This document shows positions 1,896 to 23,751 of a DNA stretch of 28,507 nt, piece by piece; position 1 is the first letter of the stretch; each line of letters opens with the position of its first letter. The position numbers and the translations under genes were made by a program. Source of the DNA: Planctomycetaceae bacterium (GTDB lineage: Bacteria > Planctomycetota > Planctomycetia > Pirellulales > Thermoguttaceae); NCBI GenBank assembly GCA_003532715.1, contig DOEZ01000087.1, positions 1 to 28,507 of the forward strand, written 5' to 3'. The notes beneath the pieces were generated by a model. That model was not told the DNA's origin. It searched no databases and worked only from the letters and a program-made list of their open reading frames with translations.

Positions 1896-3440
1896 TTAGA
1901 TTTCCTCCCAGAGTCCTTCCGTGAAGACGAAATCAACCTCGTCAGTAATTTTCTTCTTGTCGCCCGACCCGGTCTGGTTAACCCAAACGTACTCGAAGTC
2001 GGCCACCCAGAGGCGGAAGTTCAGCTCACCGTTGGACAGATCGGCCCAGGCGTCCTCGCCGTCGCCGATCGATCCGTTCGCGGTGAGCAATTCGCCCAGC
2101 GAGGTGTCGTACAGATAGGCCTCGTCATCGCCACCCTTGCCGTAGGCCTGAACCGTGTCGAACCCGTACGCTCGGAAGGTATTGGCGGCGGTCAGCAGCC
2201 TCGCGTCGGCAGGTCGTCCGATGAACGTATCGACACCTTCGGTCCCGAAGAACCGGACTGTGTCGTTGCCCTGTCCGGCAAACGCCAAGACGTGCTGGAA
2301 GTTGCTCGCCGAGATCTTGAATCCGGCGCCGACGAGCGACATGTCGTTGGGGCTGGCGACCAGGAGATCATCGCCGGCTGAATCGTACAGATTCACGACG
2401 TCCTCGCCTCCGGCGCCGCCCACGGCCCTGGCCGTCGGGAACTTGTCGGCACGCAGGTAGAAATTCGCGCCTCGGAGCAGTGCATACGTCGGATCGGCTT
2501 CGAAGGTATCCGAGTCCGTCGAATCGTAGAACTCGGCGTCGTCGCCGGCGTGGGATGAGCCGATGGCGGCCACGTACCGGAATCCGTTGACCGTGACCTG
2601 GTACAACGCGTTCGCCTTGTCCTTCAACTGGGCGTAGTGGGGATAGCCGGTGAACTTATCGGCTCCGGCCGAATCGTACAGGTTGGCGTAATCGGGCCCA
2701 CCGTTTTCGGAATTCGCCTCGACGTAGCGGAAGCCGTTTGCCTCCACGTAATAGTCGCTTCCCAAGGTTGGCTCGATGCGGGCCTGGGTTGGCGTGGACC
2801 GGAACGTGTCGCTTTCGTTCGAATCGTAGAAGTAGGCGCGATCCGCAAGGATGGGATCGCCGGCGGCGTATCCCTCGCCGTAAGCGCGGGTTGTGTGGAA
2901 TCCCTCGGCGGCGACGACTTCGCCTCCGCCGGTGGTCATGCTGCCGAACTTCGGCCGGCCGACGAACGTATCGTTGCCGGTCGAGCCTCGGAGCACGGCC
3001 GTATCGGATCCGCCGGTTCCGGCGACGGCCAAGACCTGGTTGAAATCGGTGGCTTCGAGCGAATAGCCGGACCCGGTCATCGTGGCCAACCCGGGTCTTC
3101 CCTCGAACGCATCGTCGCCGGCGGCGCCGCGCATCGTGACGTCGTCGTTGCCACCGCCGGCGGCTGCTCGCATCACTTCGACATTGATGGTGTTGACGAG
3201 GTAACCGCCGCCGTGCGGACCCTGGAAGGTGGCCTTGTTGCTCCACATTTCGACGGACTCGTCGGCGGTGGAACCGTGGAAGATCACGGTATCGGTTCCG
3301 GCGCCGCCGTCGTACGCGATGGTATCGACCTCGGTGGCCAGATAGTTGTACGCAGCGCCGTTGATGATGACGGTGAGGGTTTCGCCGGCGAAGAACTCGA
3401 AGAGGTCGTCGCCGTCAGTGCCCGACACCTGGACCTCGCG
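1896..3440 (-). repeat. C-terminal block of 9 approx. 45-aa RTX-derived repeats (GGxDxAxLYDSxGxDxF...GFxxVxA) plus terminal motif EVDFVFTEGLW
   Basis: Repeats read directly from the translation; the same block ends the neighbouring giant protein. Confidence 0.8.
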
Positions 3441-6400
3441 GTTGACGATTGGGGGTCGCGACACGATGGCGACCGTGTAGTCTTCGACTTCGCCGTTATC
3501 GGCCTGACCCGTGTAGGAAAGTCCGCCGATCGTGCTGAAGCGGAATCGGGCATAGGAGTCCCCGACGACCGCTCCGGCGGGCACCTGGAAGTGCAGGGTG
3601 TTCGCGCCGGGCTCGACGAATGCGGCGTCGAAAAGGTGCTCGCCCGCGTCGTCCCAATCGCCGTCGCGATTGAAGTCGAGCCATGCGTCGATATAGCCGT
3701 ATGTCGAGGCCGTGACGGTGACCGAGGCCACGGTGCCTTGGGCAATCGCCGTGTTGAACACGACGCCTTGCTCGTCGTTCGAGAGGTTTCGATTATCGCC
3801 GTCGGCCGCGGCGGTGGGCTGGCCGTTGGGTTCCGCGTCGATATGGGCCGACTGCGGGCCGGCCGGGTCGCCCAGGTAGACGCCCGGCACGATGCGGTGC
3901 CGCGCGCCGTTGTCGACCAGGAGCGTCGGATAGGGCGCGGGCGCGTCGCCAAGATCGAGCACGCCGTCGTCGTTGAGGATCGAGACGACCGCCTGGTCCT
4001 TTCCATCGCGGATGGCGACGATATCGTCGTCGACCTCGATGGCCAACACGAAGTACTCGTCGAGTTCGTATTTCTGATCGCCCACGACGCGCAGGGTAAT
4101 CGTCTGGCTTGCGACCGGCTGGTTCTTGAGTCCGATGACGATGTCGTAATTGGATCCGTGCGCGGCGCGCCAAACCAATAGCGAATCGGAGACGGCCGGC
4201 TTCCATTCAGCGCCGGGCGTGTTCGTCACGTTGACGGAGCCCGTTCCGAGATTCAGGTCGTAGTAGTAAACGTCGTAGGTTGATCCGTTGAAGGCTCTCC
4301 AGACGACCTGGTTGCCTTGGATGCGAGGCTCTTCCTCGGAGAACATCGACGTGCTGGAGATGTTCCTCGGCGCGGTCTGGGCGATCGCGTTGTAATGATA
4401 GATCTCCCAGTTGCTTCCCGTGTTGCCTCGCCACACGATGTCGTTACCCGAAATGTCCGGGTAGCGATCGTGGGTCGAGTTGGTCGTGACGCGCGTGGTG
4501 GCTTCGGTCTCCATGTCGTACAGGAAGATTTCGTAATTGGTCGAGCTGACCTGCGATTCCCAGACGATCTTCTCGCCGTCGATGCGAGGCCACTGATCGA
4601 CGCGGCTGTTGCTGGTCACCTGGATGACTTCGGGCGCGTCGAGCGGGTTGACGTCGCCGTAGTAGGCCATGATCTCGGTGTCCGAAGCTCCGGACCCCCT
4701 GGTCCAGACGATGTTGCGACCGGATATCTGGGGATTCCGATCGTCGAGCGTGTTGTCGGTGAGATTGACCGGATTCGCGCCCGGATCGCCCAGGTTGGCG
4801 ATCTCGAAGACGAAGACCTGGTTGCTTCGGCCGTCGTTGCCCCACCACGTGATCAACGAGTCGGAGACGCGAGGATCGCGGTCGCTGTACGAGTTGTCGG
4901 TGACCTGGCGGGTGGTCGCGACGCCGTTGTTGAGCGAATAGGCGAAGACTTCGTCGTCATTTCCGTCGTTGCCGACCCAGACCACGTTGACGCCCGTCTG
5001 CGTGACGCAGACGTGGGGGACGCGATCGTTCGTGGTGTTGTCGGTCAATTGGATCACGTCGAACGTTCCGCGGCTGACGTCAACGGTGGCGAGGAAGATC
5101 TCCCAGTCGTTGCCGTCGAAGCCCTCCCAAACCACATAGTTGCCCGACACGCCAAAATCGTAGTCGCTCGTCGAGGTCGTGGTCAGAACGCGCGTATCCC
5201 AGGTCGGCGGCGGGGTTTCGCGCGGATCGATGGTTACCTTTCCGGACGCCGCGATGTAATCGCCGTCCTGCGTCGTGGCGGTTCCGTCGATGGTGTGATA
5301 TTGCACCTCGACCGGCGCACCAAAGGAATCGGTCAACGTGAGGGTTACCTGAACTTCGGTGTAGCCCTGGTGTCCTTCCACGACCCAAATGTCACTGACC
5401 GCGACGGACGGCTTGCGGTAGCTGCCGAAATTGGCGCCGTCGAGCGTCTCGTTCGCCTCGAGGAAGATGTCGTAGGAATGATCGGCGTTGCCGTGCGAGC
5501 CGTCGACGAACCAGACCATCTCGTCCGGATAGGTCAAGACCCAATCTTGGAGCGTCTCGTCGACAACCCGAACGACGTACTTCTCGGTTCGCCCGATCAA
5601 GCCGTCGAATTCGTAATAGCCGGTCTCGTTGACGTCGGTCGTGGAGAGATCGTCGGTCATGCTGACGACGTACGGCTCGACGGGCACTCCGTAGACATCC
5701 TTGTCCAAGATGCCGTTTTCGTTCATGTCGATGTAGACGGTCACGCCGGAGATGCCCTTTTCGTTGCCGTCGAATCGGCCGTTGTTGTTGCGGTCCTCGA
5801 AGATCCAGCCGTTGATTGCCGCCGATCCGCGGGCCATAACGACCTGGTAGTCCTCGACCTCGCCGTCGCGCGCCGCGCCGCCGTAGCTCACGTCTTGCTG
5901 CGTGCTCAGGCGGAATCGCGCGAAGGTGGTTCCCGCCGAAACGGTCATGGGAATCGTGACGGGAATGGTCTGGAGTCCGTCGACGACCGAGACGTCGAAC
6001 AAGACCTGCTCTTCGGCGGTGAAGACGCCGTCGACATTCAAATCGATCCAGGCGCTCAGGTAGGCCGCGGTCGCGTCGCCCATGTGGACTTCGACGGTGA
6101 TATTGGTCTGCTGTCCGGCCATGAATTGTTCGGGCAGCGTGATGCCGTCTTCATCGTCCAGATCGTTTTTGTCGTCGCCGAGCGCTTCGTGGTCGGGTTG
6201 TCCGTCGAGTTCGGCGTCGACGAGCGTGCCCAGGTAGAGTCGCCTGGCGCCTTGGCCGGGAGCGGGCCACAGCACGTGATAGGCCGCGTCTTCGCCCGAT
6301 CCATCCTGGCCGTGCGCGGTGACGCCGACCGTGCCCACCGAGCCGATCAGGCCCGAGCCATCGTTGTCCCGGTCGACCAGGTCGCTCAATTCAGCCTTGA

Positions 6401-9400
6401 AGAGAGCCGCCTGCTGGGTATTGATAGCCGCGACGACAGCCGCGGCGGTCGTTCGCAACGGATCGACGTCGATCAGGAGCACCTTGGTGGTCGCGTTGTA
6501 GGTGACGAACGCGATGTCGCCGACGGCCCGATCGTTGACAATGTTGATCTTGACTTCGTTCATTTCGGCGCCGGGGGTCACGGCCGTGATCAACATGTCG
6601 TTGTCGTACCCGGGGAGGATCAGTTGGGCGAAGGCCGCCTCGGACTTCTCGACCGTCGAATAGGAACGAGGCGCATCGCCGTAGTCGCGTGGTTCGGCGG
6701 CGATGATCACTTTGTAGTCCTCGACCTCGCCGTCGGACGCGGCGCCGGTCGGCTCGAGCGACACGTCGCTGCTGAGCCGGAATCGAGCGAACGTATGGCC
6801 GACCATCGTCCCGTCGGCCGTCGACGGCACGGTGAACACGACCGTGTTCGCGCCGGCCGTCAAGGGCTTCGAGTCGGCGATTTTCTCGTCGGGACTCCAA
6901 ACCCCGTCGCCGTCGAAGTCGATCCACGCATTGAGGTCTCCGCCGCTCATCGAGGCGGTCACCTGCAAGCTAGCGAGTTGGCCGGGAATGAGCCAGTCGG
7001 TGAAGACCACGCCATCCTCGTCGTTGAAAACCACGGGTTCCGGACCCGAGTCGTCGATGGGACCGTTCTTGTCGTCGCCCCTGGCGTCCGCATCGGGTTG
7101 GCCGTCGAGTTCATCGTCGGCGCGGCCGCCGAGGAAGAGCCCGCCGCCCAGTTCGTGGCGCGCGCCGTCGTCGGCCAACAGGGTTGGATAGGGGGCGGGA
7201 GCGTCGCCGTAGTCGCGCAGCACGTCGACGATCGCGACCTTGTAGTCTTCCACCTCGCCGTTGATCGCCAAGCCGGTCGGACCGACGGCGGGACCGATGC
7301 TCGTGCTGGTGAAGCGGAATCGAGCGAGCGTATCGCCGATGTATTGGCCGGCGGGCAAGACGAAGCTGACGTTGTTCACGCCGCGCGCGACCGTCCGTGC
7401 GAGGACGTGCTCGCCGGCGTCGTCGAAGTCGCCGTCGCCGTTGAGATCGATCCAGGCGTTGAGATAACCGGCTCGCGACGCCCTCACTTGGAGCGTGACG
7501 ACGGATTCCATGAGCAACGCCGAGGTGAACGACACGCCATCGTCCATCTGGTCGCCCGTCGCGTCGTTGATCGGATTGCCTCGATGGTCGACGGCCTGAT
7601 TGGCGTCGGCCTCGCCGGTGACTCCATAGCCCAGGTAGTAGTCGCCGATCAGCAGATGTCGGGCGCCGTCGTTTTCGAGCTTGGTCGGATAGATCGGATC
7701 GGGCGCATCACCGAAATCGACATGCGTCAGCGCCACGACATACGTGGCGGTGCCGTCCAACTGGTTGGCCTGCAACGGACTGCCAGCGACGTCCATGATG
7801 CCGTCGGGCCCGTTGTCGAGGACGATGGTGTAGGCGTTTCCGTGTTCCCACAGGCCCGCGGCGGCGATCAGGCTGATCACATCGTTTGCCGCGTCGTAGC
7901 GGAAGAAGTAATCGACGCCGGCGACCAGCGGTTCCACGCGGCCGCTGACGTACACGTGGACCTTGCTCGATTTGACCGAGTAGTCGTAAATCCCCGCGCC
8001 GGAGAGACCGTCGTTCAACTGGATCGAAATGACGGGGGTCGGCTGGCCGATGACGAACACCTGATCGAGAGCCGGGTTGAGATCGTTGCCAGCCGCGTCG
8101 TTATCCAGAGGATCGATGATCATCGCGGTCGGCGGATCGAAATCGACGCGATCGATCGCGCCTCGGTCCTTGAAGACGTTGGAGCCCGAGCCGGAAGGCG
8201 GCTGCGCCGACGGGTCGTCGACGCGCTGCTGGCCGTAGAGGTCGTAGTCCGGGGCAAGAATCGGGGATCGCGCGATTCCCAGCGGGTCGCGGACCTCGGC
8301 CATGGCGACGCGATCTTCGAGCGAATTGACCGCGCTGTCGATGGCCTTGCTGCCGGCGGCCAGGTAGAAGTTGCCGGTGTCCGCATCGACGAATAGTGGA
8401 TCGTTCGGGCCGAGGATAACGGCCGTGGCCGATTCGACGGCGCCGACCGCGTTGAGTCCGTTGCGCTGATACACATTAGCGCCGAGCACGGTGGTGCGCG
8501 ACGTTCCGTCGACGAATATGCCGACGTCGGTGTTGGCGACGATGTTATTGAGAATCGTCGGGCTGGCGTTGTTGACGACGAGGATGCCCGTGTCGGAAGA
8601 CGCCTCGATCGGGATTCCGGCCTCGCCCGACAGACGCCACACGTACGTGCCCGGATCCATCAGATCGGTCAGATCGGCGGCACTCTTCGGTCGCATCACG
8701 CTGATGAAGTTCTCGTAGTCGCCGGCATCGAAACCGACCTGGGCGCCCGCGCCGCCGAAGCCGCTTCCCCACTCGTCCGAATCGATGTCGCCGGTGGTCC
8801 ATTGCATGTCGTGGTAGACGAAGACCACGATGTCGCCGAGCGGATCGTCTTCGATATAGAGGGTGAACGTGTTCAGCTTGTCGGCGTTCGACGCGAAATA
8901 GCCCACGCCGACCCAGTCGATCTGGACGACGGCATTGCCTCGGGCGCTAGTGCCATAGGCCACGCGGACCTCGCCCGCGCCGCGCGTGTCGACGTCGCCC
9001 CAGAAGGGCGCGATGATCGGCATGTCCTGCGGAAAGCCCTCGGGCGTGAAGTCGTACAACGGGTAATCGAACGTTATGTTTCCGTTGTTGTTCACGTACA
9101 TCTGGGTGTACGCATTGCCGTAGAAGTTCAATTCGAAGCCGATGTCGAGCAGGGAGCTCGACTCGTCGTCATTCGGCGGCATCACGACGTCGCCCGGCTC
9201 GATTAGACTGATCATCGCATCGACGCCGTTTCCGTAGACCGTGTTGTTGACGATCTTTCCGAACGGCGTGGCCGCCATGGCGCCCTGGTTGTTCGGATCG
9301 CCGCTGAACAGGATGCCGGCGACGCCGCTGTGAACGATCAGGTTGTTCTGGATCGTCACGCCGGGAACGAGTTTCTGGTCGTTGACCTTGACCAACGGAG

Positions 9401-12400
9401 CGACTGATCCGGGATGGGGGTATCCGTCGCGCTCGCCCGCATCGTACCGAATACCGTACGCGGCAGCGTGAAGAATCTCATTGGCGCTGATGACGATCTG
9501 GCCCTGGCCCTGTTCGTTGTTCTCATCGCCCTTCAACTGGCGATAGAGGGGCTGGCCGGTCGTGTAGGTCATGGGAATTTCATAACCGAGAGTGGACGGG
9601 AGCACGGTCGCCTGGTGCGAGAAGTAGTCGGACGTGATGATGTCGAGCACCCCGTCGCCGTCCCAGTCGCCCAGCACCACGCCGCTTGGTCCGGCGCCGA
9701 CGGCGTAGGTACTCGAGGGACGAAGCGTGTTCTCGTCGAATCCCGTGCCAGTGAGCACCCTGACCGAGCCTGTCGAATAGTTGGCCACGACGACATCCAG
9801 GTTGTCGTCTTGATTGAAGTAGCCAACGGTAAGGGCCACGGGTTCGGTGCCGGCGACGTAGTCGGCTCTTTCTTCGAACGTGCCGTCGCCGTTGCCGATC
9901 AGGAGCGACACGGTGCCGTCGGCCCGGTTGACCGTCAGGATATCGAGCGCGCCGTCGTTGTCCATGTCGGCCAATTTGACGTCGACCGGCAAACGGCCGA
10001 CGAGATACTCGACGGGCGTCGCGTAATCCGTATCGCCGACGCTCAAGAGGACCGACACGGTATAGTCGAGCGAGTTGGCCACGACGATATCGCCGAATCC
10101 GTCGCCGTTGAGGTCTTCCACCGCGACGCTCGCCGGCGCGTCGCCGACGGCCACGTTCACGGCGGTTCGGAACGTGCCGTCGCCGTTGCCGTAAAGGATC
10201 GAAACCGTGTTGTCGTCAAGGTTCGCCGTGACGATATCCGGATTCCCATCGCCGTCCAGATCGAAGAGGGTCACGTCACTGGGTTCAGTTCCCACGGCGA
10301 AGGTCATCTGGCTCTTGTAGGAGCCATCGGTATTACCCAGAAGGACCGACACGGTGCCGTCGCCGGCGTTCGCGACGACAATGTCATGAACGCCGTCGCC
10401 GTTCACGTCGGCCATGTCGAGGGCCGAGGGCCGGCTTCCGACCTCGTAGACCGCTGGACCCGGAAGGACCGAAATGGTTCCCTTGTATTCGTTCGTGGTG
10501 ACCATCAGGTCGACAAAACCGTCGCCGTTCAGGTCGGGCGCGACGATGTCGGTGGGGTACTCGCCGAGTTGGTCGTAGACCGTGTACTCGATGCCCGTTA
10601 CGACCGCGGCGCCGCTGAGCACGACGCGATCGCTGCCGACGCGAGAGGAGAAGGCGACGTTTGAAGCGGTCACATTGAGGTTCGTCGCCGAATTGATGGC
10701 GGAAGTGATGGACTGAGCGATCTGATCGGCTCGCCGCCCGGCGAAGAAGAAGATGTCGATAACACCATCTTCCTGGCTGAACGGCAGGAGCGGATTGACG
10801 AAGCGGAAGGTCTGGGTGTTCACGCCGTCGCTGACGGTGAACTTGGCGAGGTGAACCAGGTCCTCGGACGGGGAGGCGAGAATCGTGATGTCTTCCGTGT
10901 GGCGGTCGTTCGTGTCGAAGCTGCGGGTATTGGCGGTGATGTTGAACATCGTGTTCCAATACGAGTACTCGGTGGACACGCGGATTTCGAGCTGGTAATG
11001 GCCCTCGGTGACGTAACCGGAGATTTCACTCGGGTCAACCTGTCCGAAGGACGTATCGGGCGCGGCGTGCGAAATCATCTCGCCCCGTTCGATGAAGCCG
11101 ATCGCGACGTTGTCGATGTACCAGCCCTCGTAGGCGTTGTCTTGCGCCTGGGTATTGTAGTAGAACTGCGTGCCGTTGGCCCCCGGCGAGGTCGCGCGGG
11201 GTGTTTCGCCCGGCAGCCCGTCGCTGTATTTGAGTTTGCCCGGGTCCGCCACGCCGTGCTTCAGCAAGTACATGACACTCTGGTCGATTTTGAGCGACGT
11301 GAACAGTTCGGGATTCTCCGCCGTGCCCGTGTCCTCGCCGCCGTAGAACTCGGCGTAGAAAGCATCGACCACGCGGCCAATCTGATAGGCCACCGCATTG
11401 GCCCTTAAGAAGCCGTCAACGGGCACCAGCACGGGCACGATTTCGGGATCGTCATTGTTGACCATGCCCGGCGCGTTGCCCTCGATCTCGATCGACGACA
11501 AGAAGCTCTGGCTCACGTTCATCGCCCCGCGCCACGTAATGGGCAGCGTCGGAATTCCGGACAAATCGGTGGCGAGCCTGCACAGGTAGACGCGATCGCC
11601 GGCCACGACCGACACCGTGTCTTCGTAGAACGTGTTGAACGCGATGCTGATCGCTTGGGCGACGACGCTGGTCGAATCGACGTCGCTGATCTGAATCGGC
11701 GTGTTGCCGTCGGTCACCTGGCCGTCCTTGTCGAACTCGAAGGTGACGGTTCGACCCTGATCGTCGGTGATCGTGAGCGTTTCGCCGTCTCGAATGGCAC
11801 TGCCGGCCGAAGCGGGCAAACGCAACGAGTAGCCCATGTCGAACTCGAAGAGCTGCGGAACGCCCACCATGCTCAGGTCCGACATAAGCGTGAACGTGTC
11901 GCCGTCGACCAGTTCATTGCCGGGCACCGCGATCAGCGGAACGCCGGTGTACAGGTTTTCCCCCGGATTGCCGTTGACGTTCGTGCTGCCGCCTGTCGTG
12001 AATTCGAACTTGAGCCGCAGATTGTCGAGCCCCACGTATCCGCTCAGGTTGACCTTCGCCTGCAGCCACACGCCACCGCCGTCGACCATGTAGACCGGTG
12101 GAGGGATTTTGTCGTCAGACGTTGACATGACGTCGTTGGGCGTGTCGATGTTAGTCGCCAGAAGCTCCCAAGTCACCCCGTCGTTCGAGATGTACACGCG
12201 AGCCGAATCGGTGACGACGTTCGACTCGGTTGCACCGTCCGTTTCGAGGAAGTAGTCGAAGTAAAGGAACGGAAGGTCCTGGGCCTGATAGCCCGCCAGG
12301 CTGAACGTATTCGTCGTCAACGAGCCCTTGGCGCCGCCGGGCAAGTCGTACGTTCCGATCACGCCGGCGTTGTCGTCAAGATAGGCTTGCGTGTCGGGGT

Positions 12401-15400
12401 GTTGGAACGTGCCCGACCGTTCAAGCCCAAACCAATAGCTGTAATTGCCGTAACCGGAGTCGAGCGAGCCTTGCTGCATCGGTTGGCGCGACTCGTCGGG
12501 GGCGACGGTAATCGTGTGCCCCTCGTCCGTCCTCCGATTCTGCGTGATGTGCCACAGATTGTAGTCGAGCGTCGAGAACGCGACGCCCGTCGCTCCAACG
12601 ATCGGGTTCACGAAGCCGGACATGGCATCCGTGACGCCCAGGGTAATGGTGGAGAGCCCGTCGAGAAAGACCGGCGAGGGAACGCCGGTGACGTCGAAGG
12701 CGTAGAACCCGCCGGTCTTGTCCGTGGCAAACAGCGTCTTGGCGTACGCGCCACCCTCGACGTTGGTCGGGCCATCGGTCATGCCGGAAAACTCGATGAG
12801 CGGCTGTTCGAACGCCGCATTGAGGTCGTATACCTCCGCCTCGGCCAGGTCGATTCGGAAATTGTCCGCATCCCACATCGGCGCTATTTCATTCCCGTCT
12901 TCGTCCTCGGTTTTAACCTCCGCGCCCCGCGGCGCGCTCGCATAGCCGTCGATGACGTACAACAATCCCGCGTCGGTCACCCCGTAGAGCGTTCCGTCGA
13001 TGAAGCCGAGACCCGTGATGAAGCCCTGGGCATTCTCGAGGATTCGCCATGGACAAATCGCGGTCGGCAGTGCCTCCTCCGAGCCGCCGGGCGAAACGGA
13101 GTTTCCGTACTGATCGAACTTGAACAACCACTGCTCGGACGAGTCGCCGCCGCCGCCCATCGCGTACATATACCGGGCTCCCCCTTCGACCACGTCGAGC
13201 ATGGCCCGGAACGTCACGCCCGGGTTGTTGGGGTCGATCCCAATGGCGTTGGGGTCGTCCACTGTCGGCGCCGGAATATAGACTTCGATGCTCGCGTCGT
13301 TGTCATAGCTGATCGAACCGTCGGCGACCGAAATCTGGCGGTAGTTCCCGCCCGTGCCCGCCGCGTTGAGCGTCATCGTGTACAGCTTCCCGTCGTTCCG
13401 CACGACGATGTCGTTGTAGCTCATTCCCCCAACCGCATCGTCCAAGAGAGCATTCGCGTCCGGATTGTGCGGCTGCGAACTGCCCGCCGTGAAGTCGTAG
13501 TGGTATTCGCCCGTGAACGGATTGAACGTATAGACGTCGCTCCCGATGCAGACGTACAGGACGATGTCGCTCAAGTCGAAATCGTTGACGTGGATGCTCA
13601 GTTCGTCGAAAGTCGGGTCGGGGAACAGGATGTCCCGAGGCGAGCCGGCCAGCGCGCCTCCATTGGTGTCGCCGATCATGTCGCCGTTGAGGTCGCCGAT
13701 GGTGTCATCGGCGATTCGGGTGACCGAGTTGACCGGCTCGAACCGCAGATGCGGCTGAATCGGCACGCCCGTCTCCACGTACATTCCGTACGCCGCCCAC
13801 GGCAGCATGGCGACACTGGCGACGGCGACGTAGTAGGTGGATCCGTTCGGGCCGGAGGAATCGCCGTCCTTCAGCGCGATCGGACCAAGGTACGGATCGT
13901 TGGTGCCCGCGCTGCCCCGGGTGAGATCCTGCATTCCGGTAACGCCCAACGGATCGGTCTGGTCGTCGCCGACGTTCGAGTTGTGGCTAATGTACATCAG
14001 CGTGCCCGAACTATCGAAGACGTAGAAGATGGTGTCGGGCCGGCCCATGCCGTCGGCGTAGTCGATGTCGAAGATGACGTTCCAGATGTTGGGCTGAGCG
14101 ACGCCCGAGATGTTCTGCGTTCCCGTCGGCGCGAGCGAGAACGAATACCAGTCGATATCGTACTGCGTTTCGCCGCTGATGGAGTTCACGGTGTTGGTGA
14201 GGTAGCCGCTCACCTTGATGGCGCCGTAGTTGGTTTCGAGCAGATTGCCCAGGTGCTCGGCCGTTTCGAACGTGTTGTTGTCGGTGATGCCCGAGGTGGG
14301 GTTGATTCCGCCGGAGGTCAAGCCCAACTGGGTGTTCAGCGGGCGGATAAGTCCAGAGCCGTTGTTCGCTCCGCCGTCGTTGGCCGTCAGGGCGGCGGTG
14401 AAGGTTCCCTCGGCGTTGATCGCCGCGACAGCCGTAGCCGCCGTGGTGGCCTCCGGATCGCCCAGAATGAAGAGGACCTTGATGATCGTGCCGCCGTTGT
14501 CGAAGGCCGGGTTATAGAACACATCGGCGACGTTTCCGGTCTGGCCGCCGTTGACGAACACGATCCAGACGTTGTTGAAGGCGACGCCCGGCACGGCCGC
14601 GGTCACGGTGAAGTCGTTGAAATTGCCGTCGACGCGGACGGGGGCCGATGCCCGAACGCCCTCGGTTGTCTGGACGGTTCCCTCGATTTCCGAGGTGTCG
14701 GTCACCAGGGGCGAACTGGTCGGTAGTCCGAGCAATTCGATGCCGCTAGTCGCGTACCGGATGCTCGAAATCTGGACGGTGGAACCCGCGATTTCCTGGT
14801 CTTCGCGGATCCGGACCTGGAGTTGATACGCTCCGCTGCTGTCGCCCTGGCCGTCGGCCGTATTGTCGGCGCTGCGAACGCGGACGTAGTACAACGACAG
14901 CGAACCGGTAACGCCTGGCAGAACGAGACGCATTCCGGCGTCGTGGATGTTCGTCGTATACATGTCGCCCGTGCCGCTCCATGCGTCGCGGTCCATGGTT
15001 CGGGCGAGGCCCTCGGGCGCGATCAGGCCCGCTTCCTCGGCGGTCGAGCTTCGGCTCGAGGCCAGCACGTTGCCATTTGCGTCGATCAGTTCGACGATCG
15101 AGTCGAGCCCCATGGTCGTTCGGTCGATGTCGATCCAGACCTCGGTTCCGGCGCGCCCGGTGAACGAGTAGACGTCGGCGTAGTTCGGATCGTCGCCGGC
15201 GACGAAGCCGTGGACGTCGAACCCAAGACGCAGGTTCTCGTCGCCCGACTTCATGTTGGGAGCGAGGCTGCCCACGAACTGGGCCCAGTCGGGGGTGTCG
15301 TTCGTGTTTCCGCCCGCGTGAGCGGCCTCCTGCTCGAGCACGACCGCGACGTTCCGGTCGTTCACGTAGCGTTCGAGCTTGACGCTTCGCCAGTCGCCGG

Positions 15401-18400
15401 CCAACGGGCTGTTGACGGCGTTGTCGGTGTCGTTCTGCGGGTTCCCCCACGGGTCGCGCCCCGCGCCGATGCTGTCGTCGTACAGCGAGGTCAAGACGAC
15501 TGGATAGCCGGGCGCCCCGACGATTTGCAGGGTGCCGCCGATGCGGTCCTCGATTTCCTGAGTCGTTCCCAGCGCGGTGAAGCCGGCGTTTTCGCCGAGA
15601 AGCTTCACGACAAGGCTCTGGTTCGCGGCGCTTTGCAGTCGCAGGCCGCCGTAGGTATGGAAGTTCGGAACGACGATCTCGTCGTAAAGCACGTGAACGA
15701 TGTCGGTGTCGTCCCATACGGAGTCGATGGAGAGCACCTCGCCACGGACGATCATGCCGTTGACGGCGTTATTCGCGAGCGCGTTGCCGCGGACCAACGG
15801 CCCGTGGTTGTTGGGATACTCGGCGAAGGCATCGAGATACCCGGTGCTCCGTCCCCAATCGGCGACGTAGTCGAATTTCAGGGAGTTGGCGTTGATGCTC
15901 ATCGCCGGAACCGTGTTGTCGCGGATCACGTTGTCGACCACGATCGGTTGGGCGCCGCGGACGAAGATCACCGAGGCGGATGCGGCGGGCCGACCGGCGC
16001 GATCCGACGTGGTGGCTCCCGTGTTCCATGCCAGCGTGCTGTTGGCGAGCCGGACGTTGGCCTGATGGATTTCGACCGGGTTGAACGTGGCGAATCCGCC
16101 CGGAATGCGCGTTTCGCCGCCGGCGTACGTAATCACGGCGTGGTCGATGCTGCCGGACGAGACGGGTCCGAAGAACAGTCCGCCCCAATCGCCCGGCGCG
16201 GCCTGGCGCTCGTTGGGGTCGCGATTTCCGTTGTCGGTGTCGAAGACGCCGCCGATGCCATAGGTATCGTCGTACTTCGAGGTGAAGATGATCGGCAGCG
16301 CGGCGGTTCCTTCGGCCAGAAGCTGGGCGCCGATTTCGGTTTCGATGCGGTTGTAGCCGAGCTTGACGATAATGCCCGGGTCGATCGCCAACCGAGCGTC
16401 GTATCTGGCTGTCAGCGTCTGGCCGTTGGACCCCGGTCCACCGGGCGTTCCGGCGATGAGCAGGTTTTCCTGGACCACGTGGACGATGTCGGTGTCGTCC
16501 CACCGAGCGGATACGGTTAGCTTGTCGAGCGACGCGCCCGCTTCGGTTCGAATGCGCACGAACAGGCCGTTGATGCTGTTGTCGACGATCAGATTGCCGT
16601 TGATGTCGGGACCGACCCGATCGTAGTCGGCCGTGAAGTCCTCTCCCTGGAACTTCGTGTCGGCGAAACTGTTGGGATCGGCCGACATGGCGGCATCGGC
16701 CGAACGAACGATCGTGTTGAACGTGAGCGTCGGCCGCGACTCGACCATGTGAATCGGGTTGTAGGTTTCGCTCACGCCGTTGACCGAAACCAGGCCGCCG
16801 CCGTAGCGGATTTCGGCGTTATTGACGTAGTTGAGGAAAATGCCCTCGTTTTCCAGCACCGTTCGATCGACGACCTGGTAATCGAGATTGTTGCGGAACA
16901 CCAAGCCGCCCCAATCGCCCGGGTTCACCGTCGGATTCAGCACGCTCTGATCGCTCCACGAGCCGAGCGACCGGTCGTAGTACGAGGTGAAGTAGACGTT
17001 TTGCAGGGGCGTGCCCAGCACTTGCAGGGCCCCTTCGCTGTGGTCGACGTTCAGCGACGCGCTGCCGACGATGATGTTGGCGCGGGAGACCTTGAAGACG
17101 GCCCCCGCGTCGACCATGAGCGTCACGCCAAACGGGACGTTCAGGTTCGCGCCGTCCGCGAGCACCTGGTTCGTCTTGGTTCGGCCGACGAGGTACGCCT
17201 GGTCACGGCGAGCCCGGAGGATCGAGATCTCGTCGTCGCCCTGGTTGGCCGTGATGACGTCGTGCCGGCCGTCGCCGTCGATGTCGGCGAGGGTCAAGCC
17301 GGTCGGCGTGTCGCCGACGCCGTAGACGACCTGCGACTCGAAGGCGCCGGTGCCCAGGCCGAACAGGACCGACACCGTGTCGTCGGCATAGTTCGCGGTG
17401 ACCACGTCGGGCGAACCGTCGCCGTCGAGGTCGGCAATGCCAAGACTGCCCGGTTCGGCGCCGGTGGCATATTTTACCTGCGCGGCGAGGCTGCCGGTGC
17501 CCAGACCGAGCAACACGGAAATGTCGTTGTCGTCACGATTGGCCACGACGACGTCGCGATTTCCGTCGCCGTCGAGATCGGCGATCGCCACCGCGCTGGG
17601 ACCGGCGCCGGCGGTGAAGGACACGGGCGTGTTGAAGACGCCCTTGTCGCGGTTGATCAAGACGGCGACCGAATTCGCGCCTTGGTTGGCCGTGACGATG
17701 TCGATGAGGCCGTCGTTGTTCAGGTCGGCCAGCGCCACGCCAGCCGGAGCGGCCCCGGCGCCCAGCGCGTAGCGAACCTGGTCGCGGTACATCACATTCG
17801 GATCGCTCAGCAGAACGCTGACGTCGTTCGAGCCCCGGTTGGTCACGACGATGTCCAGGACTCCGTCGCCGTTGAGGTCGGCCAGTTCGACGTCGGTCGG
17901 CTGGGCACCCGCGAATCGCGTGATCTGTTGGTTAAAGATTCCGCTGCCGTTGTTGAGCAACAGCGATAGCGTGTTGTTGCCCTGGTTGACGACCACGACG
18001 TCGAGATCGCCGTCGTTGTCCAGGTCGGCGAGGTTCACCGCGCCGGGCTTCGCGCCGACGAGGTAGGTAATCGGCGCCCAGTAGGTTCCGTCGCCGATTC
18101 CACGGAGCAACGAGATCGAACCGTCGTTCTCGTTGGTGACGACGATGTCGGCGATGCCGTCGCCGGTCACGTCGCCGACGGCCGTTCCGGCGGGCTTCGC
18201 GCTGACCTCGTAGGTCATCTGGGCGTCGAACGTGCGATCGCGATTGCCGACGATGCGGACGATGTCGCCGGACTTGGCCGCGGCCAGGGCGTCGTCGATG
18301 TCGCGATACGGATTGTCGAGGCTGCCGAGTTGGCCGACGCCGTCGGACGTCTTGTCGACGAAGAGGGTCTTTTCGATTGTCTGTACGTTGAACCAGAAGT

Positions 18401-21400
18401 TGTGGACTCCGCCGGGCACGCCGTCGGCGTCGCCGTCGAAGAGGGTTCCGGTCGCGTCGACCAGGTGGCGGTTCGACTCGACCACCGACGGAACGAACGT
18501 CATTCTCAGGTCGTAATTGCCTTGGGTCGTGCCGCCGAGGCCGCTGCCGGCCACGTCGAGATCGTATTCGGTGTTGCCCGTGCTGGCCACCGTTACGTAA
18601 TAGACACCCGGCTCCAACTCGACTTCGAGGTAGGAGTCCTCACTGTAGAAATCGTCGTTTCGAGCGATAATTCGGCCTTGGGCGTCGTGCAGCGTCACGA
18701 CGCTGTCGAGCAGACTGAGGCTTTCGAGTCGTTCGGCGGCCGTCTCGGCGCTGAACGTGCCGCTCGTTTCGATTTCGAACCGATAGACGTCGACGTCGAT
18801 ACTGTCGGGCCGGTAGACGTGCAGGCCGTGGATGGTATCGACGTTGCCCGGGAAGAGAGGCTCGACCGAGGCGTCGTAGTACTCGCCGCCGTCGCTGGAG
18901 CCCATGATGGTTCCGACGGGCATGTCGTAGGTGTGGCCGAACCCCAGCAGGTGGCCGATTTCGTGCATGGCCGTCCGAAACCAATTTTGCCCATAGCCGT
19001 CTACCCACGATTCGGCCTGGTCCATGATGGCCACCCCGCCGCCGGCCAATCCGGCGACGCCGCCGGGGCCCGTCGGAATCGTCGGACTGAGGACGCGGAG
19101 ATCGCCCGTCGCGATCGTCAATCCCGTCGCATTGGTTCCGGTGCGTGTGTCCTCGATGAACGTGACGCCCAAGTAGGCGCCGTAGAGTTCGAAGATTTCC
19201 CGGGCGCGCTGTTTTTGCTCGGGCGTGATCAGGTTATACGCGGGACTTCCGTTGGGCAAGGCGCCGTAGACGTTTTTGAAGTTGTAGTAGATGATCGCCG
19301 TGCCATATTGTTTGTCGGCGGCGATGGCGCCAAGGTGCGCCTCGCCGGCGAGCGTCGAGGGAAGCTCGCGATGGCCGAGTTCGCTGATCGCGCCGGGCCA
19401 GTTCAAATCGTAGGGCAACGCCTCGACGGCCGAGGAGATGACGATGCTCTGGCCCTGGGTGGCCGTCCCGAGGACTCCCATGTCGGTCGCCGACGCCAGC
19501 GTGTCGCCCACGACGTAGGCTTCGGTAATCGACGTGGCGATTTCCTGGTATTCGTCGCCGATACGCAGCCGATACGAGCCCGCGCCGAAAGCGGCCAGGT
19601 CGCTGGCGAAGGTCAGCACGACTTTGTTCGCGACCGGGTCGTACACGACCGACGTCGGCTGAATTTCGACGTCGTCCTCGGGTGTGGCCGTCTCGTTGGT
19701 TTGCGACAGGCGATAGAAGTTGGTGTTCTGGGCCGAGGCGACGTTGAGCGTGTCGTCATTGAAGTAGATTTCGATCTGGTCACGATGCTGCTGGAGATTT
19801 CCGGCGGCGTCGCGATAGGTCGGTTGGGGCACGACCGAAACGACTTGGGCGCCCAGGTCGAGCGTGAACGTGATGCTCAGATCCTCTCCCTGATGGAAGA
19901 TGCCGCCATCGACGTTCTTCAGCACGACGTCGCCCTCGCCCCCGGCGCCGACGATCGTAATCATGTACATGTCGTCGGGCAACGTCTCGGCAAAGCGGAC
20001 GATAACTTCGTTCGGACGTTCGCCGATGCCGATCCAACCATAGTCCACGACGACGTCGTTGGCGTTGCCGATCACACGGTCGCCGCCGGCGCGGACGAGT
20101 CGAATCGCGCCGAGCGTGGTCGAGTCGATGACCTGGGACTCGTTGAACTTGAGCGTCAGATCTCTCGGGGCGATATCGAGAATGGTTCCGTTGACGATCG
20201 TTCCGCCCTGATTCGGGACGAGGGCCACCAACTCGGGTCCCACCATCGTCACCGGACCGGGGCCCGGACCGGGCTCTTCTTCCGTCGTGCCAAAAACGTT
20301 CAACTCCCACGAGCGCAACGTGCCCGTCGTGCCCGTGAGCAAATCTCGCACTTCGAGAGTCCATTCGCCTTCGGACGCCTCGCCCCAGTGGCGAGCCGAA
20401 GTGAGTGTCCACTCGTCGAAACTGCCGGACATGTGCCAGAAAGCGACACTACTCGACTCGGCCAGTACGGGCTTCGTTCCATCGGGCGAAACCAGTACGA
20501 TTTCAAGGTCTGCCGGCGACAGATGACCAATGTCAACCGTCACCTCGACCCATTCAATCTTCTCAACCGAGTCATCAAGCGTTACGCTTGAGCGCACGCC
20601 CGTGGAACCGCCATCGGGAATGCCCGCATTAACCATCGTTCTGCCACTGCCCGTCGATATTTCCGCCGAGACGTTTTCCCACTCGAAGGCCAAGTCAACC
20701 GCCGCCGCTGCGTCAACGGCGCCAAAACCGTAGTTATGATTGACGTGGTAGCCCGCGGCATTCTCGGTCCAGTCAGGATTCTCGGGATCGTTCAGGCTGG
20801 CCGTCTCGACCAGAATGTGTTGGACGTCGCGATAGGTCAGCCCGGGATTTGCTTCGAGCATCAAGGCAATGACGCCGGAGACCAGAGGCGCGGCTGACGA
20901 AGTGCCACCGAAAGTGGAAGTGTAGTTGATGTCGGGAAGGAAGTCGCGAGGAAGTTCACCGGTGCCCGTCTCATTGTACCCATCTTCACCCGTTCGATCA
21001 GATGTAACAATACCGTCAACAACATCACTCTGCGAGTCGTACCCCCAACTCGAATGTCCCGATATGAGCAGTGACGCACCCGGATTCGAGTACTCGGCAT
21101 AGGTGCCGTCCGCGCCGATCGCGGCTACCGCAATTGTCTGCCGCAAGCTCGCGAGCACCAGATAGTTTGTGTTTGCCGCATCTTCTCGACTGTTTCCGGC
21201 GGAAAAAACATAGATGCTTCCCAAACCGTCGCGACCGGTTGCCACGCCCGTTTCGATCGCCGCCAACGTGAGCGGTCCCACAGCCTGAAGATAGCCGCCT
21301 GGCCCCCAACTATTGTTGTAAATATCGATCTGTTCGAGTTGATGCAGGAGCGAACTGGACATCTCCACATCGGTCGCAAACCCACCGATCAGGCGAATAC

Positions 21401-22283
21401 CCGCCAATTGAGCCGCTGGCGCGGAACCGCTGACCCCGAGAGAGTTGTTGCCGACAGCGCCAGCCACGCCGGCCACGGCCGTGCCGTGATTGTCCGGCCC
21501 AAAAAAGATGCTGATGCCTGGAGACGGATCATTGTCGCCGTCACGGTAGTCGTAACTGAGATCCGCACGGATATTGTTGACCAAATCAGGATGGTCCATT
21601 TGCAGGCTGTCGTCGACAATCCCGATGATCACGCCAGCTCCGGTAACGCTATCCCACGCGGACACAACGTTGGCATCAACGCCGGGAGTGCCGCCAGTCT
21701 GTCCCGTGTTCTGCAAATGCCACTGTTCGCCGAACAAGGAATCGTTTGGAACCGCCATGGGCACCAACTTCTCGGCGACCAACGGATAATAGTAATCGAT
21801 TCCCTCGGCCGCTTGCAGCGTGTTGGCCACGGTTACCCACGACGTTGTCTCCGGGAACTCCCAAATCGTCGCATTTGACAAAACGGGCGCGTACTGTAGG
21901 AAATCGGCGTTGAGCGAGGCGGCGAGTTGCGGGGCGCAGGTGTCGGCCTTGCTTTCGTTGACGCCGACGACCCATTGATAGGTCGAGGCCAGAAGCTCCT
22001 GGTCGTAGCCCGAAAGATCGGACGCCCTGTAGACGGCGCGCGACAGGTTGTCGCTCAAGTAGTTGTAGTCGGTCATCGGGCAGACGATTTGTTCGAGGTC
22101 GTCGAAGCCCGGGGGCGAGGTGATGCTCAACAGCACTCGCTGCTCGAACGTCTCGACCCGAAGCGAACGGCTTCGAAGAGACCCCAACACATCACGCCGG
22201 CCGGGCCACGCGTTCTTGATCTTGGCCGCACTCTTCGGCCGACCAACTCCGGACCAACGGCGAAACGTATCCCAGATCATCAT
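1896..22283 (-). CDS. Giant extracellular multidomain protein (6795 aa): S8 protease/P-domain, metzincin-like, PPC, beta-helix, FG-GAP x2, NIDO, GEVED x4, SdrD-B, Calx-beta, beta-propeller, C-terminal RTX-like repeats
   Basis: Uninterrupted 20.4-kb ORF, ATG at 22283 with GAGGAG 8 nt upstream, TAA at 1896-1898. Strong GC3 bias in this frame (143/160 in eight sampled lines). Recognisable motifs along its whole length. Confidence 0.95.
   Translation of the reverse strand: [6795 protein letters not shown]
3465..3956 (-). other. GEVED domain 4 ([11 protein letters not shown]...NGEVEDY)
   Basis: DxGDAP start, [24 protein letters not shown] and GEVEDY motifs. Confidence 0.85.
3966..5411 (-). other. 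Calx-beta domain split by an 8-repeat beta-propeller (about 4110-5210; TolB-like or Methanosarcina surface-protein-type repeats)
   Basis: Calx-beta N-half VSDIWVVEG...[11 protein letters not shown]...[16 protein letters not shown]; C-half [11 protein letters not shown]...ELDEYF...VSILNDD. Eight xxLTxN...DxxPxISGxxIVW...EI(F/Y)xY repeats lie between them. Confidence 0.75.
5412..5822 (-). other. SdrD B-like domain
   Basis: [35 protein letters not shown]...TGYYEFDGL...YVVR...NFG pattern. Confidence 0.75.
5835..7718 (-). repeat. Three tandem GEVED domains (7230-7718, 6702-7214, 5835-6686); the third carries an internal insert of about 100 aa
   Basis: Each has D(F/Y)GDAP...ARH/AYH...LG...AWIDxNxDG...ARFR...GEVEDY. 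Confidence 0.85.
8598..9224 (-). other. NIDO (nidogen-like) domain
   Basis: [47 protein letters not shown] and [12 protein letters not shown] are hallmark NIDO motifs. Confidence 0.8.
9534..10571 (-). repeat. FG-GAP/VCBS-type repeat block 2, seven Ca-binding DxxxDGxxD-type repeats
   Basis: [63 protein letters not shown]. Confidence 0.85.
15350..17204 (-). other. Right-handed parallel beta-helix (pectin-lyase-like) region of three related units
   Basis: Three (F/L)TSxYDxxxG...GDW units, repeated NN/N-ladder rungs ([16 protein letters not shown]) and WDDTDIVHV twice. Confidence 0.65.
17205..18236 (-). repeat. FG-GAP/VCBS-type repeat block 1, seven Ca-binding repeats
   Basis: [63 protein letters not shown]. 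Confidence 0.85.
18530..18810 (-). other. PPC (bacterial pre-peptidase C-terminal)-like domain; further PPC-like units near 14810-15190 and 13820-14165
   Basis: DVDVYRFEI...[20 protein letters not shown]...[17 protein letters not shown] pattern. Boundaries are approximate. Confidence 0.65.
18903..18965 (-). other. Metzincin zinc-binding motif [11 protein letters not shown] (aa 1107-1117) with Met-turn (TIMG, M1127); M10/matrixin-like metalloprotease
   Basis: Intact HExxHxxGxxH followed 10 residues later by Met. Confidence 0.8.
20286..20640 (-). other. Proprotein-convertase P-domain
   Basis: [28 protein letters not shown]...[26 protein letters not shown]...[12 protein letters not shown]. Confidence 0.85.
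20679..21749 (-). other. Kexin/furin-like S8 serine protease catalytic domain, triad D224/H266/S462 and oxyanion N364 intact
   Basis: GIVDDS (D at 21612-21614), NHGTAVAG (H at 21486-21488), FSAGN (N at 21192-21194), [34 protein letters not shown] (S at 20898-20900), NHNYGFG. Confidence 0.9.
22125..22169 (-). other. Planctomycete extracellular / LEPRxLL-type N-terminal motif ([15 protein letters not shown], aa 39-53)
   Basis: Variant of RxLxxExLExRxLL after a basic leader with no hydrophobic segment. Confidence 0.75.
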
Positions 22284-22398: not shown

Positions 22399-23751
22399 CT
22401 ACCGGTCTCTCCAATTTCCTTCCATGGCCAGCACGAAATCGAGTTCCGACGCGACGTCCTTCGTGTCGTCGCCGCCTTGCATGGACTTCGCGACAACGCT
22501 CTCGAAACAGCAGGCCCAGTAGTTGAACTGATCGTTCGACAACCGGAGCCAGTTGTCGGCCGCATCGAGATGGTCGGCCATCGCCGAATCGTACAGCACG
22601 GCCTGATCGTATCCGCCGTTCTCCTCGCGTCCGAAGACGTTCACCTGGCGGAAGCCGTGGGCGCGGTTCGAGTAGGCGTTGCTCGACAGTTGAGCGTAAT
22701 TCTGCGCGGTCAACAACGTGTCGTCGCCCGCCGAATCGTACAGCACGGCCAGGTCGTTGCCCTGGCTTCCGTAGCCGGTGACGTAGCGGAACGAATCGAC
22801 TTGGATTTTGTATCCGTCGCCGGAGAGCGCGCCGTAATTCGGACCCGCAACGAAGGTGTCGTCGCCGGCCGAATCGTACAGTTGGGCCGTGTCGGTCCCG
22901 CCCTGGCCATAGGCCAGCACGAACGAGAAGCCGTCGGCACGGCAGTAGAAGCCGTCGCCCTGGAATTGGGCGTAGGTCCGGTCGGCCTTGAACGTGTCGT
23001 TGCCGGCGGAGCCGTACATCTTGGCGGTATCCGCACCGCCGGCGGTCGAGGCGACCACCATCCCGTCGAACCCCTCGGCATAGAGGTAGTACGTCGATTG
23101 GTCGTCGCGCAACTGGACGTAACCGGCCGTCGACTCGAAGCGATCGTTACCGGGCGAGTCGGCGAAGTTAACGGTGTCCAAGCCGCCCGCCGTGGCGAAA
23201 GCCTTGACGTTGTCGAACGACTTGGCGACGATCGTGTAGTCGCCGTCGGTCAACGCGGCCGATTGGTGCGAGGCCGTGAACGCGTCGTCGCCGGCCGCGT
23301 CGTACAGCGTCGCCTGATCGTAGCCACCCGCCTCGGAACGCACTTCGACGGTCTCGAAGGCGTTGGCGGCGAGGCTGAATCCCGCGCCGGTCAGGCCCGT
23401 CTGAGCCTTGCGGCCCGTAAACGTGTCGTCGCCGGCCGAATCATGGAGAAGCGCCGCGTCGTTTCCGCCGCCGCCGCTGGCCGTGATCGATTCGACGTTC
23501 TCGACCGTGACGGTGTAGTCGATGCTCGACAAAACGCCGCGGGTGGGCCACAGCTCGACCGAATCGTCGGCGGCCGACCCGGTGAACACGACCGTATCCG
23601 CGCCGCCGAGTCCGTCGAAGCGGACCGTGGCGGTGGTGCTCGGCACGCTCTGCACGACGCCGTTGAGCTTGACGATCCACGCACCCGGCACCGGGCCGCC
23701 GACGAACTCGAAGACGTCGTTGCCCGAGGTGCCCGTCAGGACCAACTCGGT
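22399..23751 (-). repeat. C-terminal block of 8 approx. 45-aa RTX-derived repeats plus terminal motif ELDFVLAMEGNW
   Basis: GG(Y/T/A/L)[14 protein letters not shown]...GFxxVxA repeats read from the translation. Confidence 0.8.

Follow-up and report, generated by a model that had tools for sequence, protein, structure and literature searches.

A Gly/Asp repeat module with a conserved terminal cap in Pirellulales exoproteins

Two proteins encoded on a single planctomycetal contig end in the same module, a block of Gly/Asp-rich repeats that is preceded by a conserved lead-in and closed by a short cap with a near-terminal tryptophan. The module is an uncurated modular domain of Pirellulales exoproteins, of the kind of a C-terminal Gly/Asp repeat module, in which the strictly C-terminal element is the cap only and not the whole module. 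Its role is best explained, tentatively, as that of a stalk or anchor: a self-contained solenoid, probably stabilised by Ca, that requires a cap at its end.

The two proteins and the architecture of their terminal module

The window, that is, the whole stretch of DNA that was analysed, is a 28.5-kb contig (C170; 28,507 nucleotides) from a 4.95-Mb MAG with a completeness of 70%. Both of its ORFs lie on the minus strand. The ORF called at positions 1896..22283 encodes a giant protein of 6795 aa, acidic (pI 4.1) and with only 6 cysteines, in which Pfam recognises an S8 peptidase with a P-domain, an M10-like metallopeptidase, FG-GAP repeats, NIDO, four GEVED domains and Calx-beta. Its nearest full-length relative is a 6898-aa 'VCBS repeat-containing protein' from a Pirellulales MAG (MBN1911069.1). 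Residues 41–53 (22125..22163, minus strand) form an N-terminal LEPR-XLL / Planc_extracel-type export motif, ..LRVETFEQRVLLS, which scores 15.0 bits with NF012209, follows a basic stretch and is devoid of a hydrophobic core. The upstream ORF (22399..28506, minus strand) is open at its 5' end, and the visible 2035 aa comprise a P-domain fragment and uncharacterised repeats ahead of the terminal block. A 6401-aa open frame in a genome of the same genus carries a closely matching terminal block and is possibly the full-length counterpart of the upstream protein. With the blocks excluded, the two bodies gave no BLASTP match at E ≤ 1e-3 and each contains a P_proprotein Pfam match, in agreement with the first-pass annotation, which had called them unrelated apart from a P-domain. 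The genome of the window encodes at least four module proteins, the two in the window and one each on contigs C703 and C80.

The terminal block makes up the final 514 aa of the giant and the final 450 aa of the upstream protein, and the two blocks share 36% identity over 425 aa (BLASTP, E 1e-61). All coordinates that follow refer to the minus strand. In the giant, the translation and the block alignment place the lead-in, or N-terminal cap, at 3309..3440, eight repeat units of 45–54 aa at 2145..3308, and a ninth, degenerate unit with the terminal cap and the stop codon at 1896..2144; the end motif, ..DEVDFVFTEGLWEEI, spans 1899-1943. The upstream protein has its lead-in at 23617..23751, seven units of 46–49 aa at 22624..23616, and an eighth, degenerate unit with the terminal cap (..SELDFVLAMEGNWRDR) and the stop codon at 22399..22623. 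The shared lead-in, the nine and eight repeats and the common end motif that had been noticed at 1896-3440 and 22399-23751 are thus recovered by translation and by BLASTP. The lead-in of both blocks follows the pattern GTxGxDxFEF...NG...DGxxGxDTVxFxGS, which is kept in 19 of 24 aligned blocks, and an HMM of the lead-in matches 250 of 256 relatives. Both window proteins display the features by which the family is defined: the lead-in, at least four units of ~47 aa, and a cap ..DFxLxxxGxW no more than 4 aa from the end.

The unit, of ~47 aa, has the consensus GGxDxAxLYDSxGDDTFxAxPxxAxLxGxGFxxRAxxFDxVxAxA. Gly and Asp are conserved in both of its loops, GGxD and DSxGDD; conservation per unit at the Asp/Gly positions is 91% (G), 79% (D), 81% (S), 81% (G) and 90% (D), the first conserved Asp having belonged to the anchor pattern used for this count. 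Because of these conserved residues, Ca2+ binding is proposed, and the ion is probably bound by the GGxD and DSxGDD loops, as far as can be judged from their sequence. Relatives have between 4 and 26 units (median 10) and modules of 400 to 1200 aa. The module blocks have a pI of 4.1 and contain 0–3 Cys. By eye, only the GGxDxAxLY and DSxGDDTFx halves of the unit resemble degenerate RTX nonamers. PF00353 is silent even at E ≤ 1, which bears out the earlier remark that the repeats are not canonical RTX nonapeptides.

AlphaFold2 models were obtained for the 517-aa block from a 24-sequence alignment (pLDDT 94.2, pTM 0.88) and for the last 180 aa from a 72-sequence alignment (pLDDT 95.7, pTM 0.90). 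Both models consist entirely of short strands, five per unit, and in both the cap is ordered, with no floppy tail. A β-roll or solenoid had been anticipated by the first-pass annotation, and an all-β repeat is what the two models predict. A Foldseek comparison of the 517-aa model placed the RTX domain of CyaA first (7usl_C, E 7e-6, TM 0.23) and, after it, RsaA, family I.3 lipases and serralysins. The 180-aa model yielded no significant match in the PDB, the best being the RTX-like domain 9cse (E 0.047), and its TM against CyaA block V is 0.31–0.35. Ca-binding RTX rolls (CyaA, lipases, serralysins, RsaA and the AlgE R-module) are the only recurring PDB neighbours, and the likeness is weak. The nearest clusters in the ESM Atlas are unnamed Planctomycetota proteins (0.95), followed by HemolysinCabind (0.86). 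Given the low TM values (at most 0.35) and the weak Foldseek matches, the fold is best described, on the strength of confident models, as an all-β stacked repeat that resembles RTX rolls only loosely.

Distribution, cargo and terminal position

An exhaustive phmmer search against 1.84 billion representatives of 50%-identity clusters returned 2324 clusters of relatives at E ≤ 1e-3 and 505 at E ≤ 1e-30. All named relatives are planctomycetal and fall in Pirellulales, Thermoguttaceae, Lacipirellula, Botrimarina, Mariniblastus and one Isosphaeraceae. In genome samples, where 'not found' does not equal 'absent', the module occurs in 4 of 4 other genomes of the window's genus, in 10 of 18 of its family, in 66 of 151 of its order, which includes Lacipirellula parvula, and in 1 of about 199 other genomes sampled in the phylum (E ≤ 1e-10). 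The taxonomic restriction expected of a sorting signal by the first-pass annotation is therefore seen both in the named members, all of them Planctomycetota, and in the contrast between the order and the rest of the phylum. Genomes carry from one copy (L. parvula) up to fourteen or more matched stretches, and module genes stand in tandem in the window and in relatives.

Scans of both blocks with Pfam and NCBIfam gave no match on the repeats and recognised only GEVED, upstream of the block. A profile built from 24 aligned blocks retrieved nothing from the PDB sequences, even at E ≤ 10, and no description of the module was found in full-text literature searches. A described family with a known non-sorting role, which would have spoken against the earlier proposal, thus came to light neither in Pfam and NCBIfam nor in the literature searched.

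Cargo was read from precomputed Pfam lists for 120 relatives of 640–2030 aa, in which no Pfam family corresponds to the module itself. S8 peptidases account for about half of these relatives and C25 peptidases, here with a P-domain, for about a tenth. The remaining cargo includes peptidyl-prolyl isomerase, CAP, alkaline phosphatase, phosphodiesterase/sulfatase, pectate-lyase-type β-helix, BNR sialidase-like, cadherin-like, Calx-beta, PKD and DUF1559 domains, among others. At least 15 cargo types, peptidase and non-peptidase, are fused to the module in these lists, so that the diversity of cargo foreseen earlier is real. Nine of the 28 module ORFs in the fetched loci are orthologous to the sole L. 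parvula module protein, the S8 peptidase WP_152099607.1 (45–54% identity over ~600 aa), and an S8 protein of ~1100 aa with the module is therefore a widespread core member of the family. A few module proteins consist of little beyond signal and module.

Full-length relatives start with a basic stretch followed by (L/F)ExLExRxLL(S/A), a pattern that matches 141 of 231 Met-started sequences. Against NF012209 (LEPR-XLL; cut-off 17) the giant scores 15.0 bits and its relatives 13.5–17.9 bits, and against PF07595 (Planc_extracel; cut-off 25.5) the scores are 15–17 bits; the motif is plain by eye. The LEPR-XLL motif is a proposed planctomycete-specific export signal that is present on most of the largest Tuwongella proteins, and several expressed proteins with the motif were found only in the SDS-soluble envelope fraction of T. 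immobilis (PMC8567305). LEPR-XLL-type motifs also occur on many proteins that lack the module. Module proteins have a median pI of 4.2 and a median Cys content of 0.11%, versus 1.25% for ORFs of the same genome. Low Cys is shared by LEPR proteins without the module and therefore marks the class, not the module.

Among 256 relatives, an HMM of the last unit and the cap recognised 188 full-length caps. Of these, 171 stop no more than 3 aa short of the C-terminus and 11 stop 4–10 aa from it; at least four of the remaining six are misassigned internal repeats. For 134 of the 150 best database relatives, the last Trp is followed by 0–5 aa, and the cap Trp is invariant in the 72-sequence alignment of the last 180 residues, so the end motif is far beyond chance. 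Many relatives without a full cap end in variant tails of the form D-aromatic-hydrophobic...W. The module as a whole is C-terminal in 247 of 256 relatives and N-terminal in nine. In these nine, it follows the export motif directly, lead-in included, precedes 350–900 aa of cargo and has no cap. The rod is therefore always at a terminus, not always at the C-terminus. The strictly C-terminal position that the first-pass annotation demanded of a sorting signal holds for the cap; for the entire block it holds in the 247 proteins and fails in the nine capless, N-terminal copies.

Structural and sorting interpretations of the module

The stalk or anchor proposed here would be built as follows. The N-cap lead-in and the 4–26 Asp/Gly-rich, 47-residue units would stack into an all-β, solenoid-like rod, and the terminal cap, with 0–4 residues between its invariant Trp and the free C-terminus, would nucleate the solenoid and seal it; the cap may also dock the rod to a generic envelope component. 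The acidic, Cys-free rod would be rigidified by Ca2+ in the GGxD and DSxGDD loops, a role suggested by their residues, and could act as the stalk or attachment arm of enzymes and giant adhesin-like proteins that are exported via the N-terminal LEPR-XLL route. We infer from these features an extracellular location and a stalk or anchor role for the module. The variable number of units, from 4 to 26, is what is expected of a spacer and not of a fixed tag. A single copy on the ~1100-aa S8 orthologue in many genomes, with no transport genes nearby, fits a module that works without dedicated machinery. Large size, variable length, tolerance of an N-terminal position, frequent occurrence as a single copy and the absence of linked machinery thus favour a structural device over a tag, as does the export motif of the cargo itself, which is also found on proteins without the module.

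An all-against-all comparison of neighbouring ORFs in 25 loci revealed no conserved transporter or partner gene beside the module. The sole neighbour families shared among these loci are Ser/Thr kinases with WD40 repeats (6 loci) and DUF11/CARDB proteins (3 loci, two of them in genomes of the window's own family), and both are abundant in the phylum. On two long contigs, the module genes have unrelated neighbours. The BBP7 porin encoded just downstream in the window was considered as a partner and rejected, because the adjacency is not conserved at related giant genes: in a complete genome, an oxidoreductase comes after the counterpart of the giant, and behind another counterpart lie a C25 peptidase and biotin synthase.

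Several considerations run counter to the stalk. So tight a distance between Trp and terminus is seen more typically at terminal signals that are recognised than at passive caps, and the attachment of a single module to at least 15 cargo types is equally a hallmark of sorting domains. If the N-terminus anchors the protein, a C-terminal rod would be distal, a tip and not a stalk. A partner may also be encoded elsewhere in the genome. A dedicated C-terminal sorting or anchoring signal, in which Pirellulales machinery would recognise the cap with its near-terminal Trp, stays a serious rival because that distance is so tightly kept, and we consider it rather unlikely. By analogy with the T9SS CTD, PEP-CTERM/exosortase and dockerin–cohesin systems, such a signal would direct translocation across the outer membrane or covalent or non-covalent attachment to the surface. 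It would account for the strictly C-terminal cap with its invariant Trp, the diverse cargo, the restriction to one lineage with 1–14 copies per genome, and the tandem module genes. Short aVDLL-type tails on other LEPR proteins of the same genome point the same way: aVD(L/F)LL is found in 6 of 12 of them versus 62 of 2562. However, this motif was defined after the sequences had been seen, which makes the test circular, and the enrichment is not relied on.

A length of 400–1200 aa with a variable number of units, the nine capless N-terminal copies among 256, the absence of a conserved partner gene in 25 loci and the single substrate in many genomes all argue against a sorting signal, as do the separate N-terminal export motif of the cargo and the T1SS ABC and MFP markers, which were not detected in module-positive genomes. 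The models of the known systems are silent as well. T9SS CTD models (TIGR04183/TIGR04131 and PF18962) gave no match in Pfam or NCBIfam. NCBIfam reported no PEP-CTERM, exosortase or sortase tail, and the proteins end in an acidic ..GxWxDx with no hydrophobic helix. Neither dockerin (PF00404) nor GC-type dockerin (NF041540) matched, and the AlphaFold2 model is all-β. The sorting signal proposed in the first-pass annotation consequently has the position of the cap, the lineage, the cargo and the fold in its favour, and has against it the variable size, the N-terminal copies and the lack of a partner gene. An unlikely elaboration is that Pirellulales possess an undescribed pathway that takes LEPR-XLL exoproteins across or onto the outer membrane and recognises them by the cap with its invariant Trp, carried on the solenoid. 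The machinery of such a pathway would be encoded away from its substrates, and it would be a planctomycetal counterpart of T9SS-CTD or T1SS-RTX logic.

It is improbable that the module is a ligand-binding or adhesive rod, comparable to a CBM or an ice-binding solenoid, whose surface binds a polymer (polysaccharide, mineral or prey surface) and targets the attached hydrolases or adhesins to it. Cargo that consists mostly of hydrolases and adhesin-like giants, the tolerance of either terminus and the few proteins that are little more than signal and module would suit such a rod, but the conserved residues are loop Asp and Gly and core hydrophobics with no obvious surface face, and no likeness to CBM or lectin models was found. 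Very unlikely, in our view, is a removable C-terminal pro-domain or intramolecular chaperone of secreted peptidases, similar to PPC or the C-terminal extensions of subtilases, that is cleaved after export and was later copied onto other cargo. The prevalence of S8 (about half) and C25 peptidases (about a tenth) among the 640–2030-aa relatives, the widespread single-copy S8 orthologue with the module (9 of 28) and the S8 and M10 domains at the start of the giant are consistent with this origin. However, non-protease cargo (PPIase, CAP, phosphatases, cadherin-like and Calx) carries the module too, a pro-domain would not usually be so large or so variable in its repeats, and no conserved cleavage motif is seen at the lead-in.

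Highly improbable is a divergent RTX β-roll with an uncleaved C-terminal T1SS signal, in which Ca2+-driven extracellular folding would act as a ratchet and pull the giant, unfolded and poor in Cys, out of the cell with its C-terminus leading. In the PDB, the full block indeed comes closest to T1SS substrates (CyaA RTX at E 7e-6, RsaA, family I.3 lipases and serralysins), module proteins are acidic and Cys-depleted, and the classic cargo of T1SS includes giant adhesins and proteases that bear C-terminal rolls (PMC3034196). Nevertheless, PF00353 is silent, TM is at most 0.35 and the 180-aa model is without a significant match. The canonical ABC and MFP components that a T1SS substrate has in its genome, usually in adjacent genes, were not recovered; divergent systems may be present. 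TIGR01842 (PrtD-type T1SS ABC; cut-off 510 bits) gave best scores of 230–261 bits in module-positive and module-negative genomes alike, and similar generic ABC exporters are present where the module is not found. With TIGR01843 (HlyD-type MFP), control genomes responded, whereas three module-positive genomes, of which one is complete, had no match at E ≤ 1e-15. T1SS substrates are further characterised by the lack of an N-terminal export signal, but the giant and 141 of 231 Met-started relatives carry the export motif; no transporter accompanies the module in the 25 loci, and some modules are N-terminal.

The export and display of the many giant planctomycete surface proteins and exoenzymes are poorly understood. 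The N-terminal LEPR/Planc_extracel motif is a proposed signal only, and no C-terminal counterpart of it has been described. The module marks a coherent subset of LEPR exoproteins, including a peptidase that is conserved across Pirellulales. Neither a curated model nor a solved relative by sequence exists for the family, which exceeds 2000 clusters at 50% identity, and its fold may be a new type of Ca-dependent β-solenoid. With a curated HMM, thousands of proteins listed as 'hypothetical' or 'VCBS repeat' would be better annotated. In the cultured Lacipirellula parvula, the single-copy S8 peptidase (WP_152099607.1) offers a handle on the question of stalk, anchor or sorting signal.

Comparison with known systems

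Like the RTX β-roll domains, the module consists of acidic tandem repeats, rich in Gly/Asp and free of Cys, at the C-terminus of proteases and giant surface proteins, and it is predicted to share with them an all-β stack of repeats closed by a structured cap. However, the module unit has 47 aa and five predicted strands, whereas the RTX turn has 18 aa and is made of two nonapeptides. Unlike the RTX proteins (PF00353, PF08548 Peptidase_M10_C), which are T1SS substrates, the module proteins carry an N-terminal export motif.

The module and the T9SS CTD follow one logic: a domain confined to a single lineage is placed at the very C-terminus of secreted hydrolases that are otherwise unrelated, C25 peptidases (the gingipains) among them. 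The T9SS CTD is a single β-sandwich of 70–100 aa, whereas the module is a repeat rod of 400–1200 aa. A T9SS is not known to occur in Planctomycetota.

A third comparison is with the LEPR-XLL (NF012209)/Planc_extracel (PF07595) class, to which the N-termini of the module proteins point and with which these proteins share giant size, low Cys content and a probable surface location (PMC8567305). That family is defined by its N-terminal motif only. The C-terminal module, which is without description in PMC8567305, is a narrower, additional feature within the LEPR-XLL class and is largely confined to Pirellulales.

Proteins and genes at the giant locus

The upstream protein (22399-28506, minus strand) runs off the edge of the window. 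A closely matching block (G354:C2:18144-19202) lies at the end of a 6401-aa open frame in a genome of the same genus, and the upstream protein may therefore be a second giant. Tandem module-bearing genes are seen again in relatives (G292:C189 and G359:C7/C10). The body of the upstream protein, at residues about 150-1560 of P0004, is built of many successive repeats in which the signature ..DGDFVVVW.. or ..GNFVVVW.. recurs, and no Pfam family was matched to it.

For the 6795-aa giant, precomputed Pfam lists name PF26549.1 on P0005, which covers the giant's last 1161 aa, and on P0155, its 50%-identical relative; this family did not appear in the local Pfam scan. Because it is also missing from the precomputed lists of the remaining 118 relatives, PF26549.1 probably corresponds to something other than the module; its span may be the propeller inserted in the Calx-beta domain. 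On the downstream side, 435 nt separate the giant gene from a 439-aa ORF (141-1460, minus strand) that matches BBP7, the planctomycete beta-barrel porin-7, with an E value of 6.6e-13. In two other genomes (L008 and L010), the genes related to the giant do not have this neighbour.

The module on other cargo

A single-copy S8 peptidase of ~1000-1200 aa that carries the module is kept across Pirellulales genomes (loci L006, L007, L014, L016, L021, L022, L026, L027 and L030). Seven of these nine loci share 45-54% identity over the protease part with the Lacipirellula parvula ortholog WP_152099607.1; the L014 peptidase aligns with only 36% identity over 261 aa. A variant architecture occurs in eight database relatives (P0213, P0249, P0256, P0040, P0011, P0044, P0124 and P0177), in which the N-terminal LEPR motif is followed directly by the lead-in and 8-13 units, and then by phosphodiesterase/sulfatase or beta-helix cargo. 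These N-terminal modules are without the terminal cap.

Other C-terminal ends in the same genome

A second, distinct C-terminal tail of ~45 aa, basic and terminating in ..AELAVDLLMAGR or ..VLAVDLLLARRR, ends four or five further large LEPR-XLL-type proteins among the ORFs of the window's own genome (contigs C205, C210, C240 and C419, and partly C458 and C461). Its short aVDLL stretch is similar to the VDFLL of the module cap, a likeness that may be due to chance. Two other large LEPR-type proteins, of 2558 aa (contig C398) and 1622 aa (contig C209), have dockerin-like and PEP-CTERM-like tails, respectively, and several C-terminal end types thus coexist in one genome.
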